From a bacterium (GTDB lineage Bacteria; Electryoneota; Electryoneia; Electryoneales; Electryoneaceae), in assembly GCA_043801585.1 (NCBI GenBank), contig JAZDLX010000040.1:1-26931 (forward strand): a stretch of 26,931 nucleotides of DNA, read 5' to 3'. Position 1 is the first letter of the stretch. Every line of letters starts with the position of its first letter. The notes under the pieces were generated by a model, which was not told where the DNA came from, did not search any database, and worked only from the letters and a program-made list of their open reading frames with translations. This document shows positions 17,290 to 23,007 of this stretch, in pieces. A program made the translations under genes and the position numbers.

Positions 17290-17751
17290 ATGGAGGATAC
17301 AAAGAAGATTACTCGCCGCTCATTCGTGGATTATCTGCTGCTGGTTACAGGTGCGGGAGTGTTGGGGACGATTGCCTATCCCGTGCTCAAGTTCATTCTC
17401 CCTCCGGCGCAGAGCGAGCCGAACAATCTGACGATGACCGTCATGGAAGCGGGAGCATTGGCCAGGGGAGAGTTCAAGATTTTCGAATTCAATCGAAAGC
17501 CGGCGATCATTATTCGAACGGGTGCCGACGCCAAAGCGCCCGAATCCTATCACGCACTTAGCGCAGTCTGTACGCATCTCCATTGCACCGTCCAATACGA
17601 AAATGCCAGTGGCCAGATCCTTTGTGCCTGCCACAACGGACGGTTCAATCTTCAGGGGCAAGTGCTTTCCGGACCTCCTCCAAGTGCCCTGACTGCTTTT
17701 CAAGTTGAGATCCAGAACGGAAAAATTGTCGTAGCGGTTCAGGGGGCATGA
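17290..17751 (+). CDS. Rieske 2Fe-2S subunit of a Rieske/cytochrome b complex
   Basis: Tat motif TRRSFV plus TM helix; boxes CTHLHC and CACHNG; GPPP; GAGGGAG SD. Confidence 0.93.
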   Translation: MEDTKKITRRSFVDYLLLVTGAGVLGTIAYPVLKFILPPAQSEPNNLTMTVMEAGALARGEFKIFEFNRKPAIIIRTGADAKAPESYHALSAVCTHLHCTVQYENASGQILCACHNGRFNLQGQVLSGPPPSALTAFQVEIQNGKIVVAVQGA

Positions 17752-18845
17752 TGGAAGAGAAACGGTCGAAATTCGTGGCGTGGTTCTACGAACGTCTTCC
17801 CATCGATGCTCTGAAGCAGTACTCGGAACACAAAACCGTACCCCGGACGAAAGACTTTCACTGGTATTTTTTCGGCGGGATCGCCCTGTTCTTTTTCATC
17901 GTTCAGATTGTCACCGGCCTGTTCCTGTTGCTCTACTACAAACCGACGGCGGAGAGCGCCTACGAAAGCGTTCATTTCATCGAGAGCGAAGTCTACTTTG
18001 GCTGGTTGATCCGCAACGTGCACGCCTGGTCGGCGAACCTGATGATCCTCGCCTCGTTTATCCACCTGTTTTCCAACTGGTTTCTCAAAGGGTACCGCAA
18101 ACCCCGGGAGCTCACGTGGATCCTGGGTGTTTTGCTGCTCTTTCTCGGCATGGGATTCGGTTTTTCAGGGTACCTGTTGCCATGGAACAAACTCTCCTTT
18201 TTTGCGACGAAGGTGGGCATCGAGATCGCCGGAGTGACTCCGTTTATCGGTGATTTTCTGATGAAATTCCTGCAGGGCGGGGATGATGTGTCGGGCGCTA
18301 CTCTGACACGGTTTTTTGCCATCCATGTGGCGATTTTGCCCGGTCTCACATTGCTGTTCCTCGTGCTCCATCTTTTTCTCGTCCAGTACCAGGGAATAAG
18401 CAAACCGATCGGCGACACGACGGAAAAATCGATGAAGTTCTTCCCCGATTTTGTCTACCGGGAGCTGGCCGTATGGAGCTTCTGCCTCCTTTTGCTGGCG
18501 TTTCTGGCGGTGTTCTATCCCTTCGATTCCGTGTTTATTCCGCTCGAATTACAGGAAAAGGCGTCCGCCTTCGATCCCACTCCATTAGGGATCAAACCGG
18601 AGTGGTATTTCATGTTCATGTTTCAATCGTTGAAGTACTTCCCCGGCACCATTCTGGGATTGAACGGCAAGGTGATTGCGCTTCTCAATTTTGGAGTGGC
18701 CGCATTGGCACTGTTGACAGTTCCTTTCTGGGACAGGTGGTCCAGTCGCGAGCAACACCATTGGCTGCCGAAAGCGGCTGGTGTGCTGGCAATCGTTTTT
18801 ATCATCGTGTTCACCATTCTTGGCTACGTGGCTCCAGGACATTAA
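17748..18845 (+). CDS. Cytochrome b (b6-like N-terminus fused to subunit-IV-like domain)
   Basis: Four heme-b His (RNVHAWSANLMILASFIH; AIHVAILPGLTLLFLVLH), GYLLPW, Qo motif IKPEWYF; start overlaps the Rieske stop (ATGA). Confidence 0.95.
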   Translation: MMEEKRSKFVAWFYERLPIDALKQYSEHKTVPRTKDFHWYFFGGIALFFFIVQIVTGLFLLLYYKPTAESAYESVHFIESEVYFGWLIRNVHAWSANLMILASFIHLFSNWFLKGYRKPRELTWILGVLLLFLGMGFGFSGYLLPWNKLSFFATKVGIEIAGVTPFIGDFLMKFLQGGDDVSGATLTRFFAIHVAILPGLTLLFLVLHLFLVQYQGISKPIGDTTEKSMKFFPDFVYRELAVWSFCLLLLAFLAVFYPFDSVFIPLELQEKASAFDPTPLGIKPEWYFMFMFQSLKYFPGTILGLNGKVIALLNFGVAALALLTVPFWDRWSSREQHHWLPKAAGVLAIVFIIVFTILGYVAPGH

Positions 18846-18859
18846 AGCGGAGAAAGAAG

Positions 18860-21142
18860 ATGAGGCTGTCAAAATCGGCGATTGTTCCGCCACTGTGGCT
18901 CCTGGTGCTGTCAACAGCCATCCTGCTCTTTTTCGGCGGTCAGGTGTCTTTTGCTGCTGACGCGTGCATCACCTGCCACAAGGATTTCACTCCGGATTTA
19001 ATGGATGCATTTCGTGAGGATGTCCACGCTGCAAATCAGCAGGCCTGTGTGGGGTGCCACGGAGGCAATCCGAATGCTGCTGACGACGACATGGCCGTAG
19101 CGCATGAGACCACGGATTTCACACCACCTCCATGGACGGCATCCGAGTCCGTGGAGCGCTGTGGATCTTGCCATAAAAAAGCTGTGCAAGAACTCGGAAC
19201 AGGCCCGCATCGGGGAGTGATCGGGGAGCATCCTGATCCGGATCTTCCGGGCTGCACCCGCTGCCATGCGTCACATCCGATCTACAAGATCCAGGATGCC
19301 AAGTCTCCGGTGAACAGGACGGCGGTGCTTCAGACGTGCAGTGCATGCCATGCGGATCCTGAGATGATGGCGCGCCACAACCTTTCGCCACAAATCCCCA
19401 ACGAATACCGGAACAGCGTCCATGGACGGGAGTTGCTGACCCGGGACAACGTTGCGGCGCCATCCTGTATCGGGTGTCATGACAATCACAGCGGTCATAA
19501 CGAAAACGTTTCCTCTTTCGATGAAGCCTGTTCCCTGTGTCACCAGCGGGAAGCGAAAGCGTTTAAAACGTCGAAACATCAACGTGTCTGGGAGCTGACA
19601 AATACACCGGTCTGTATCACCTGCCATGGTAGCCATGCGATCGAGATTCCCTCCGTCGAAATGTTGGGAACTGGTCCGGGAACGATCTGCTCGAAATGCC
19701 ACAATCCGGGCGACTCGCCGGATGTTTTCAGGTCTTTACTCGCGAAGATCGAGAAGGAATTCAGCCAGGGTCAGGCCCTGATTGTCGAAGCAGAAAAATC
19801 GGGGAAAAACGTCGACGCCCAAATCAAAATCCTCGAGCAGGTTCGCACCCAGCTTCAGAAAGCTCGCCAAAGCATTCACTACTTCGACCTGGACCGATTC
19901 CGCCGGGAGGTTGACAAGGGTTTGGAGCTAAGTTCGAACATCTCGACATCGGTCGAACAGCTGTTTGGCGAAAGCAGTTGCATCACATGCCATCGCAAGC
20001 TGGATCCTGAGATGGTGGCCGGGTTCAGCAACGATGTCCATGCAGACAAGAAAATATCCTGTGATGGTTGTCATGGAGGCAATCCGCTGTTGCAGGATGA
20101 GAAGGCGATGAGCAAAGAGGCAGGCTTTGTCGGAGTGCCCAAACGGCCGGCAGATATTGGACCTTTCTGTGCGCGTTGCCATTCAAAACCGGAAACCATG
20201 AACGCCTTCGTACCGGGAATCGCGACGGATCAACTCTCACAGTATGCGCTGAGTGGCCACGGCCAGGCTCTATCCAGGAATCCCTTCGACAAGAACGTGG
20301 CAACCTGTGCCAGTTGTCACGGCGTCCATTCGATACGAACGATCGACGATCCCTTGTCTCCCGTGTATGCAGTCAATGTCCCTGGAACATGCAACACATG
20401 TCATGGCAATCGCGCCCTGATGAATTCCTACGGGATTCAGACAAATCCCTATGAAGATTATCGCGGCAGTGTGCATGGGAAAGCGTTGTTGGAACAGGGT
20501 GATGTTTCCGCTCCGGCCTGCAACGATTGCCATGGAAATCATGGTGCAATGCCACCCGAGGTGGATAACATCGCCAACGTCTGTGGCCAGTGTCACCTGA
20601 TCAATGCCAACCTTTTCAAACTTTCGATCCATCGAGGCATCTTTGAATTGCGTGGCATGGAACAATGCAGCAGCTGTCATGGACATCACGCCATCAATCC
20701 TCCTACGGACGCGATGCTTTCCACAATGCCGGGGAGTTTCTGTGCAAAATGCCATGACCCGGGCAGCGCTCCGGACCAGGTGCGTGAAATGTTCACGAAC
20801 CTCGACGCAAAAAGCCTTGGGGCGCGAAATAAACTTCGCCTCGCAGAATCCTACCTGGTCAATGTGGATGATGGATTCTTCAAGCTGGACAAGGCGAAAT
20901 CGGAAATCACCAAGATGCGCGTCCTGGTGCACCTGTTTGACCTTGACACGCTGAAGGTTGCAGACAAGAATACCCTGGCCACCCTTCAGGGGGTGGAGGA
21001 CATCGGAGATAAGGGTATCGAAAATGCCATGTTTCGACGGAAAGGATTCCTGCTTGCGTTGGGTCTCTTTGCGCTCTTCCTGGCAATCGTGATTCTGAAA
21101 ATCAGGGAACTTGACAAGCAACGGAAACTCGAGTCCCAATAA
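18860..21142 (+). CDS. Membrane-anchored 18-heme cytochrome c (2 x 9-heme modules)
   Basis: Signal peptide MRLSK...SFA, 18 CxxCH motifs counted, C-terminal TM (GFLLALGLFALFLAIVILKI); GGAG SD before ATG 18860 (760 aa). Confidence 0.93.
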   Translation: MRLSKSAIVPPLWLLVLSTAILLFFGGQVSFAADACITCHKDFTPDLMDAFREDVHAANQQACVGCHGGNPNAADDDMAVAHETTDFTPPPWTASESVERCGSCHKKAVQELGTGPHRGVIGEHPDPDLPGCTRCHASHPIYKIQDAKSPVNRTAVLQTCSACHADPEMMARHNLSPQIPNEYRNSVHGRELLTRDNVAAPSCIGCHDNHSGHNENVSSFDEACSLCHQREAKAFKTSKHQRVWELTNTPVCITCHGSHAIEIPSVEMLGTGPGTICSKCHNPGDSPDVFRSLLAKIEKEFSQGQALIVEAEKSGKNVDAQIKILEQVRTQLQKARQSIHYFDLDRFRREVDKGLELSSNISTSVEQLFGESSCITCHRKLDPEMVAGFSNDVHADKKISCDGCHGGNPLLQDEKAMSKEAGFVGVPKRPADIGPFCARCHSKPETMNAFVPGIATDQLSQYALSGHGQALSRNPFDKNVATCASCHGVHSIRTIDDPLSPVYAVNVPGTCNTCHGNRALMNSYGIQTNPYEDYRGSVHGKALLEQGDVSAPACNDCHGNHGAMPPEVDNIANVCGQCHLINANLFKLSIHRGIFELRGMEQCSSCHGHHAINPPTDAMLSTMPGSFCAKCHDPGSAPDQVREMFTNLDAKSLGARNKLRLAESYLVNVDDGFFKLDKAKSEITKMRVLVHLFDLDTLKVADKNTLATLQGVEDIGDKGIENAMFRRKGFLLALGLFALFLAIVILKIRELDKQRKLESQ

Positions 21143-22543: not shown

Positions 22544-22616
22544 TCCCCGGTAGCTCAATTGGCAGAGCGGGTGGCTGTTAACCACTAGGTTGGGGGTTCA
22601 AGTCCCTCCCGGGGAG
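22544..22616 (+). tRNA. tRNA-Asn (GTT), CCA not encoded
   Basis: Acceptor TCCCCGG/CCGGGGA + G discriminator; D-arm GCTC-AATTGGCA-GAGC; anticodon arm GGTGG-CT-GTT-AA-CCACT; T-arm GGGGG-TTCAAGT-CCCTC. Confidence 0.97.
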
Positions 22617-22617
22617 C

Positions 22618-22857
22618 ATGTTTACGGTTTATGCTATTTATAGTCCATCGATTGATCGTCTCTACATCGGACAAACCGGAGATTTTAAGAACCGCCTTCG
22701 CGCACATCGCGAGGGCGGTTCAGGTTTCACGTCGAGGGCAACGGATTGGATCGTCGTGTATACAGAACGGTATGCGACTCGACAGGAAGCGATTCGTCGA
22801 GAACGGCAATTGAAGTCGTTCCGAGGTCGTGAATTCTTAAGGAAGCGCCTTAAGTAG
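22618..22857 (+). CDS. Stand-alone GIY-YIG nuclease (79 aa)
   Basis: VYAIYS...LYIGQT, conserved Arg/His (RLRAH), FT, catalytic Glu in EAIRRERQLKS. Confidence 0.9.
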   Translation: MFTVYAIYSPSIDRLYIGQTGDFKNRLRAHREGGSGFTSRATDWIVVYTERYATRQEAIRRERQLKSFRGREFLRKRLK

Positions 22858-22909
22858 GCTGTTATCCGCCAGCTGGCGGATGGGGGTTCAAGTCCCTCCC
22901 GGGGAGCAT
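22857..22909 (+). repeat. Duplicated 3' half of tRNA-Asn with an inserted perfect palindrome
   Basis: 22881-22909 is identical to 22591-22619 (29 bp); GGCTGTTA at 22857-22864 equals 22573-22580; the 10 nt between them in the tRNA are replaced by TCCGCCAGCTGGCGGA. Confidence 0.92.
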
Positions 22910-22937
22910 AAAGCCAGGCAGAGACGCCTGGCTTTTT
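22910..22937 (+). terminator. Rho-independent terminator of the tRNA/GIY-YIG transcript
   Basis: AAAGCCAGGC-agagac-GCCTGGCTTT-TT. Confidence 0.85.
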
Positions 22938-22950
22938 CGTTGGTGGGACG

Positions 22951-23007
22951 ATGCACTCGTTATACGTCCTGTATTCCAAGACGCTGGACAAATACTATCG
23001 GTTTTGA
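22951..23007 (+). pseudogene. Remnant N-terminus of a second GIY-YIG nuclease
   Basis: Translates MHSLYVLYSKTLDKYYRF*, cf. MFTVYAIYSPSIDRLYIG; ATC GGT (IG) lies in a shifted frame at the expected position; similarity then ends. Confidence 0.65.

Follow-up and report, generated by a model that had tools for sequence, protein, structure and literature searches.

How does a unit of 290 bp, with one small gene and no integrase, come to lie between two copies of a tRNA 3′ end? The question arises at the tRNA-Asn gene of the window, the whole stretch of 26,931 nucleotides that was analysed here. We call the genome of the window G000, its contig C174 and the 79-residue protein encoded in the unit P0001. 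Read from the sequence, the insert is a recent one, in which a single small GIY-YIG gene is joined to a partial tRNA copy marked by a hairpin. Our preferred reading, which we consider probable although far from certain, is that the unit is a selfish nuclease–hairpin element of tRNA genes. By analogy with related enzymes, it would nick single-stranded DNA and be copied in by host repair. Its way of working would be that of Ssn or REP–RAYT elements, with tRNA genes as the site of action. The features of the locus are these:

22544..22617, + strand: intact tRNA-Asn(GTT), the host target, CCA not encoded (ARAGORN; Rfam 67.8 bits; 100% identity to the tRNA-Asn of G001)
22581..22590, + strand: tRNA nt 38–47, the stretch exchanged for the palindrome in the downstream copy (sequence comparison)
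22591..22619, + strand: left direct repeat, tRNA nt 48–76 (repeat scan, exact 29 nt)
22618..22857, + strand: stand-alone GIY-YIG gene, 79 aa (P0001; PF01541, E 6e-13)
22857..22864, + strand: inner arm, 8 nt, a copy of tRNA nt 30–37 (anticodon loop) that overlaps the P0001 stop codon
22865..22880, no strand assigned: palindrome TCCGCC-AGCT-GGCGGA, 16 nt, with a 6-bp stem and a 4-nt loop (folds on both DNA strands)
22881..22909, + strand: right direct repeat, tRNA nt 48–76 (exact 29 nt), with the host-tRNA hairpin directly after it
22910..22937, + strand: terminator-like hairpin of the host tRNA gene (by folding; same stem and different loop in G001)
22951..23007, + strand: possible remnant, 18 codons with weak similarity to the beginning of a second short GIY-YIG gene

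The two copies of the 29-nt repeat, at 22591–22619 and 22881–22909, are identical, with a period of 290 bp and mismatches on both flanks. None of the other direct-repeat families listed in a 7-kb scan exceeded 25 nt, and most were imperfect, so an exact repeat of this length is far beyond chance. Deletion of one period in silico left the tRNA followed by the hairpin, and the right repeat is likely the displaced original 3′ end of the tRNA. The ATG of the P0001 gene, which is the sole in-frame start after the upstream stop, falls on tRNA positions 75–77. The ends of the exchanged stretch, tRNA nt 38–47, are self-complementary over 3 bp. At this locus Rfam reports the tRNA only, besides a chance tmRNA match on the partial copy. 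The original prediction had described the repeat at 22591 and 22881 and the plain tRNA gene with terminator that remains once a period is removed, and both descriptions are borne out. It had placed only a 79-aa ORF and a partial tRNA copy between the repeats; these are present, but the 16-nt palindrome had been missed. The terminator seen behind the second copy does fold and is kept in G001, but the hairpin at 22910..22937 is absent from the list of a consensus terminator scan. The unit was also rightly described as integrase-free: none of the seven PF00589 (tyrosine recombinase) matches of G000 is on C174, and neither is any of its 13 Y1_Tnp matches.

By domain search, the neighbouring genes on C174 are ordinary metabolic genes. 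Genes for a Rieske protein, cytochrome b and a large multiheme cytochrome c stand consecutively at window positions 17290–21142. The possible remnant at 22951–23007 scored 14.3 bits (E 0.15) and ranked fourth among 100,446 genome segments. It lies just behind the terminator, which is the place of such genes in many Bacteroidota loci, and no similar stretch was seen in the G001 allele. No read run contained more than 0.05 of the stretch; four runs gave coverage only on the tRNA-like parts, and this came from other organisms.

The search for alleles of the locus took in the 15 remaining genomes of the family. A tRNA-Asn gene was found in 14 of them, once at a contig end, and none of the 13 alleles with a readable flank had a homologue within 1.5 kb by tblastn. 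One of these alleles belongs to G001, from the same genus, in which an identical tRNA-Asn is preceded by an upstream region of 85% identity and followed directly by the same terminator stem. CCA is encoded in the empty G001 allele but in neither of the G000 copies; it is also not encoded in seven of the 13 empty family alleles. The simplest reading is that the insert was gained in the G000 line. Loss in G001 may be an alternative, G001 being another species with a flank identity of about 85%. Close homologues occur in two of 61 relatives (G000 included) and in one of 80 sampled Patescibacteria, which is a patchy presence. Broken homologues were found in G002, together with tRNA scraps 8 kb downstream, and in G008, 2.7 kb away.

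Other rearranged pieces of tRNA-Asn were seen in the relatives. Two loci, L127 (G014) and L128 (G013), hold 43-bp duplicates of the tRNA-Asn 3′ part that start at the anticodon loop, as at ordinary integrated islands; the one in G013 lies 25 kb from the tRNA. In G001, 25 nt of the tRNA-Asn 3′ end recur in inverted orientation 2.5 kb upstream of the tRNA, and this copy has a hairpin of its own (L144, 1164–1188).

P0001 consists of a PF01541 GIY-YIG domain (residues 2–67 of 79, E 6e-13) and no other domain. This match and the catalytic Tyr, Arg, His and Glu assign it to the GIY-YIG superfamily. Y16, R26, H30 and E62 are invariant in all 67 aligned proteins, and Y5 and G18 of P0001 are also conserved in this alignment. 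The structure model has a pLDDT of 94. Among known structures, the best sequence matches are the UPF0213 proteins of PDB entries 1ywl and 1zg2. The closest folds in Foldseek are UPF0213, Slx1 and HIGLE, all with E > 0.001; the TM scores are 0.67–0.70 to Slx1/HIGLE versus 0.51–0.57 to I-TevI/UvrC. There is no Asn after E62. Being stand-alone, without a C-terminal Asn and nearer to Slx1/UPF0213 than to UvrC/I-TevI, the protein falls, by these features, in the prokaryotic Slx1-like group. NCBIfam has no family for P0001, PADLOC gave only short, weak and partial matches (E 0.002), the PHROG match is weak (E 2e-4), and the neighbours in the Atlas are unnamed GIY-YIG clusters. No close homologue was found on phages (50,697 phage records), plasmids or viral contigs, the last of these scanned with a single peptide pattern.

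The original prediction had linked GIY-YIG domains with homing endonucleases, and for P0001 this does not stand, as both sequence and fold are closest to UPF0213/Slx1 and not to the I-TevI/SegB type. An I-TevI/SegB-type identity was considered for P0001 and rejected, the protein being a bare Slx1/UPF0213-like domain without NUMOD3 or another DNA-binding extension. In classical homing, a SegB-like enzyme would cut both strands of the empty tRNA gene, with an occupied allele as the template from which the cassette is copied. This reading nevertheless survives best among the alternatives, and we rate it as unlikely. SegB is a free-standing GIY-YIG gene co-transcribed with tRNAs; it cuts at a T-arm motif, preferably at a tRNA-Asn site immediately 3′ of CCAR (PMC2330249, in part). 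The presence of CCA in the empty G001 allele and its absence from both G000 copies would suit such a preference, and the overlap of the ORF with the downstream tRNA in 86 of 123 loci recalls the processing control proposed for segB. On the other hand, PF01541 covers residues 2–67 of the 79 and leaves no DNA-binding extension, the occupied allele keeps a full intact tRNA gene, and CCA is missing from seven of the 13 empty family alleles as well. Neither a duplicated arm nor a hairpin would be expected from homing, and P0001 has no phage matches. Since a bare domain without a DNA-binding part stands beside an intact target, the single-strand nicker of our preferred reading suits the locus better than a double-strand homing enzyme.

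Scanning species genomes with peptide patterns gave 97 confirmed relatives, of which the best 80 were analysed. By record title the hosts are mostly Patescibacteria, and also Bacteroidota and Ignavibacteria. A same-strand tRNA lies within 100 bp at 68 of the 80 genome loci (69 in a recount) and within 600 bp at 71 (70 in a recount); a tRNA or tRNA fragment is present at 78. The motif CCGCC-N3–6-GGCGG occurs within 150 bp at 68 of the 80 loci (again 68 in a recount) and is lacking at 12, and some loci have no partial copy (L074, L092). Among the best 80 of 139 metagenome loci, found with one pattern and possibly overlapping the genome set, a same-strand tRNA within 100 bp and the palindrome motif are each present at 68. 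The tRNAs within 100 bp are of at least 14 types, with Asp and tmRNA in addition; 'Cys' and 'SeC' isotypes look like miscalls and were dropped from the list. The tRNA lies downstream of the gene at 59 and upstream at 12 of the 71 loci, and partial copies are found either 5′ or 3′ of the gene. At most loci the unit measures about 280–440 bp. Broken gene copies are present at L003, L046, L258 and L284.

The linkage to tRNA genes separates these proteins from their Ssn-type look-alikes. For this control, profile matches from relatives, five seed genomes and a 41-genome family sample were split by the C-terminal tail alone, using the best 30 loci per search and 36 hand-picked regions after removal of 14 duplicates and five fragments. 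A tRNA lies within 450 bp at 28 of the 42 loci with short proteins, two of them seed loci, versus none of 59 with tailed Ssn-type proteins. SRM-like repeats flank ten of the 42 short versus 47 of the 59 tailed proteins. In further Patescibacteria the corresponding tRNA counts are 16 of 30 short versus 0 of 7 Ssn-type proteins. For 14 of the 42 and 14 of the 30 short proteins there is no intact tRNA within 450 bp. A quick tree of 97 rows has a 44-row branch that contains all 34 SRM-flanked proteins and excludes P0001 (SH-aLRT 96). SsnA itself is absent from this tree, and the branch was taken as Ssn from its flanking repeats. Most forks of the tree are open, and the tRNA-linked proteins do not resolve as a single clade.

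Some members of the family have other settings. Distant homologues lie at tmRNA or tmRNA-like 3′ ends (L258, L259, L334, L353), at L259 with hairpin-marked partial copies on both sides. At eight loci (L034, L040, L042, L046, L049, L059, L077, L093) the target tRNA-Asn or tRNA-Thr has an anticodon-loop intron of 187–573 nt. G128 and G063, with genomes of 0.7 and 1.2 Mb, hold 13 and 8 small GIY-YIG genes, several of them at different tRNAs with different hairpins. At L342 (G134) the short ORF of a distant homologue lies within what we take, by motif, to be 16S rRNA-like sequence.

In the window the downstream copy consists of tRNA nt 30–37, the 16-nt palindrome in place of nt 38–47, and then nt 48–76. 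At homologous loci, too, the palindrome swaps for tRNA sequence and does not plainly interrupt it. The replaced stretch is the D-loop at nt 15–17 (n = 26), nt 24–31 (n = 8) or nt 10–12 (n = 4), and more rarely the D-arm (n = 2) or nt 38–47 (n = 2); more distant members have exchanged the anticodon arm or the T-loop for the hairpin. Automatic chaining of the arms gave 66 of 74 loci with some spurious chains, and we cite clean cases only. The tRNA-Asn junction 37|48 holds three different 16-nt palindromes in three genomes (the window, L143 and L013), and tRNA-Met copies use this junction as well. The palindrome is letter-identical to that of the window in 57 of 91 non-redundant homologous loci. 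Distant members have other hairpins, often of the same 16-nt build. The 6-bp stem, 4-nt loop and TC...GA ends are common to many hairpins beside Ssn-type genes, and the NTS consensus shares them with the palindrome of the window (PMC11893778, in part). The hairpin stands exactly at one junction, next to host-matched tRNA sequence, in both orientations, and the other junction is variable and reaches far into the flank at some loci. A fixed hairpin junction and a variable second one fit a nick at a constant position in the folded tRNA gene, after which sequence is copied from a donor; they also fit a single crossover between a small circle and either arm.

Nested forms were seen as well. At L143 (G042) tandem gene-less arm–hairpin–arm units stand between the tRNA and its terminator, with further nested inserts behind the gene. 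At L044, L052 and L086 the palindrome is nested in another copy of itself.

These junctions also bear on a passive origin of the layout, which we regard as improbable. An integrase acting in trans would have placed a mini-island at an anticodon-loop att site, and a mobile palindrome would later have entered the dead copy. The copy in the window does begin at the anticodon loop, like the 43-bp att-like duplicates in G013 and G014, and anticodon-centred sites are the commonest class for islands (PMC4383910, in part). The palindrome is moreover dispersed, self-nesting and found in intron and RNase P-like sequence. But 5′ copies dominate in this family (59 tRNA-downstream versus 12 tRNA-upstream loci), whereas islands number 3760 at the 3′ versus 159 at the 5′ side (PMC4383910, in part). 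Against a passive origin there are also the duplications that extend far into flanking DNA (L060, L289), the hairpin at 68 of 80 loci, its position, which tracks protein groups, and the unit size of about 280–440 bp at most loci.

Our preferred reading of a nuclease–hairpin element is consistent with the arms, which follow the host tRNA. The acceptor stem of the copy equals that of the adjacent own tRNA at 47 of 55 loci, compared with 7% for other loci, and the inner arm fits the own tRNA better in 55 of 55 and 11 of 11 cases. In 35 cases the stem differs from that of the closest relative by protein; here the copy agrees with its own tRNA in 29 and with the relative in one. As the loci are related, the p-values of these arm matches are overstated. 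Host-matched arms could instead come from long co-inheritance with gene conversion. A second gene copy of 93–100% identity adjoins the gene at eight of the 80 genome loci and two of the 80 metagenome loci. Such a second copy is also found at eight of 50 other loci (six distinct), and L307 holds a threefold array. The arrays repeat the dead tRNA copy and not the intact tRNA.

Much of the original prediction is thus supported beyond the window. It had proposed a minimal selfish element that targets tRNA genes and had named tRNA-linked homologues, tandem amplification and empty alleles in relatives as points to check. The homologues are tRNA-linked (68 of 80 genome and 68 of 80 metagenome loci, versus 0 of 59 for Ssn-type look-alikes), they form arrays of near-identical units, G001 carries the tRNA-Asn and terminator without the insert, and there is no integrase on C174. 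The 3′-end duplication that it emphasized holds at the window, but the commonest form in the family duplicates the 5′ part of the tRNA.

The palindrome is a dispersed repeat whose tie to the gene is strong but not exclusive: it is abundant in genomes in which no close homologue was found and also stands in SRM- and REP-like repeats. G000 contains 59 copies of TCCGCC-N4-GGCGGA versus none of a control pattern; by regex classes, 35 of the 59 lie in SRM-like and 19 in REP-like repeats (54 of 59). G000 also holds two Ssn-type genes (on C212 and C15) and 13 Y1-transposase matches, and either kind of enzyme could move the palindrome. G001, G028 and G044 have 22, 43 and 29 copies, and no close homologue was found in these genomes. 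The Patescibacteria G128, G134 and G138 have 22–54 copies and only more distant small GIY-YIG genes. This non-exclusive spread is the main evidence against the palindrome being the enzyme's own site. Gene and palindrome co-occur across 80 Patescibacteria (4 of 6 versus 12 of 74), and the Fisher p value of 0.013 is only suggestive because kin are not independent. The flanks of the palindrome show a weak tendency to unusually stable folding (mean −7.8 versus −6.8 kcal/mol; 9 of 58 below the 5th percentile). At L357 (G138) the palindrome lies within sequence that is presumably RNase P RNA-like, a label taken from motifs.

A constant hairpin between two variable arms, both following the host tRNA, also invites a guide. 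RNA or single-stranded DNA of the form arm–hairpin–arm would pair around a small loop in the tRNA gene, and an Slx1-like enzyme would cut the resulting four-way junction. The replaced stretches are loops or short stems, the fold resembles that of the branch-cutting Slx1, and the unit is on a predicted transcript. However, the inner arms are short and uneven (3–16 nt; 8 nt in the window), local duplication accounts for the arm match equally well, and the nearest tested analogue, SsnA, ignores RNA (PMC11893778, in part). We therefore give guide-directed cutting a low probability. In the boldest form of the idea, which we hold to be only slightly less doubtful, the arm–hairpin–arm would be a retargetable guide, and a nuclease of fewer than 80 residues would grip the hairpin and also mobilise a cross-phylum 16-nt repeat into tRNA, tmRNA, rRNA and REP sequences.

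Domestication by the host, as a tRNA-coupled repair or defence nuclease kept for its benefit, is about as improbable as guide-directed cutting. It would explain the conserved catalytic residues and the up to 13 paralogues in a 0.7-Mb genome, and amplification by SegB does benefit its phage (PMC13096335, in part). Against it stand the patchy presence of the gene (two of 61 relatives, one of 80 Patescibacteria), broken copies (L003, L046, L258, L284), arrays that repeat the dead copy and not the intact tRNA, and PADLOC matches that are weak and partial (E 0.002). An assembly artefact can practically be dismissed: the assembly is of metagenome type with 225 contigs, but the layout is shared by well over 100 separate records, and its junctions follow biological patterns.

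For the selfish nuclease–hairpin element that we prefer, we infer the catalytic steps by analogy with SsnA, Slx1 and SegB. The gene would be transcribed together with the tRNA and exposed through tRNA processing. Just as Ssn does with a hairpin of this size, the protein would bind the 16-nt hairpin, and it would nick an adjacent branch point where a single strand of a tRNA gene, or of its own copy, is folded. The broken end would pair with the tRNA arm beside the hairpin, copy hairpin and gene, and rejoin the chromosome. Alternatively, a small circle may recombine via one arm. Both routes would leave one intact tRNA and one dead copy. Repeated nicking would keep the arms matched to the host, make tandem arrays and perhaps seed the hairpin into other folded DNA.

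If this is true, integrase islands are not alone in colonising tRNA genes, and a one-gene element of about 300 bp does so as well, in Patescibacteria, Bacteroidota, Ignavibacteria and further groups. Many unannotated GIY-YIG proteins of about 80 residues would thereby gain a function; among 8000 scored there are 5020 matches at E 1e-10, a number that likely includes Ssn-type proteins. The origin of many tRNA pseudo-fragments in genomes would be accounted for, and the dispersed 16-nt palindrome would have a candidate mobiliser. The system is small enough to be probed with a single protein and few oligonucleotides, and it offers a predicted cut region at tRNA nt 37–48 and a natural empty allele.

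In the literature compared, mostly open-access main texts, chromosomal small GIY-YIG genes bracketed by hairpin-marked tRNA copies are not described. The family of integrase-free tRNA-gene elements is widespread and, as it appears, undescribed. The supplements of PMC11893778 list GIY-YIG neighbourhoods and could bear on novelty. The prokaryotic Slx1-like GIY-YIG proteins of the UPF0213 type (PMC1564403, in part; PDB 1ywl, 1zg2) share the minimal domain without a C-terminal Asn; the available part of PMC1564403 describes them as probable repair enzymes, without tRNA-gene linkage. GIY-YIG ORFs in the non-intron rRNA insertions of CPR bacteria (PMC11270868, in part) are likewise scattered in structured-RNA genes, but they are in rRNA only, and the main text mentions neither tRNA nor a palindrome.

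The Ssn system (cd10448; PMC11893778, in part) is similar in having a single-domain GIY-YIG gene beside a short, genome-wide dispersed hairpin of 6 bp with a 4-nt loop; the word 'tRNA' is absent from the main text of that paper. P0001 differs in its length (79 versus 94 aa), in the lack of the C-terminal tail of the SRM-flanked group and in its place outside the SRM-flanked branch (SH-aLRT 96). Its flanks are tRNA direct repeats, with no SRM or NTS at the window locus; SRM-like motifs occur at two of 80 and three of 80 homologous loci. REPtrons and REP–RAYT systems (PMC3733652, in part) also place a single nuclease gene between members of a dispersed family of palindromes, but RAYT is a Y1 HUH transposase for which that source, as far as available, describes no tRNA targeting, and P0001 is a GIY-YIG protein.

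SegB of T4/T6 (PMC2330249 and PMC13096335, both in part) is likewise a GIY-YIG gene beside same-strand tRNA genes; it is on the tRNA transcript, cuts tRNA genes and drives tandem amplification by recombination. It is phage-encoded, cuts double strands and has a C-terminal NUMOD3 part, whereas P0001 is chromosomal and has PF01541 only; no tRNA duplication or hairpin is described for SegB in the available parts of these papers. Islands integrated at tRNA genes (PMC4383910, in part) have the same bracket of an intact tRNA and a displaced end fragment in the same orientation. The unit in the window differs from them in having no tyrosine integrase, a size of 290 bp and a palindrome in the fragment, and 5′ forms are common in its family. 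By the features tested, the unit is outside Ssn, SegB, REPtrons and integrase islands, and it is probably nuclease–hairpin selfish DNA of another form.
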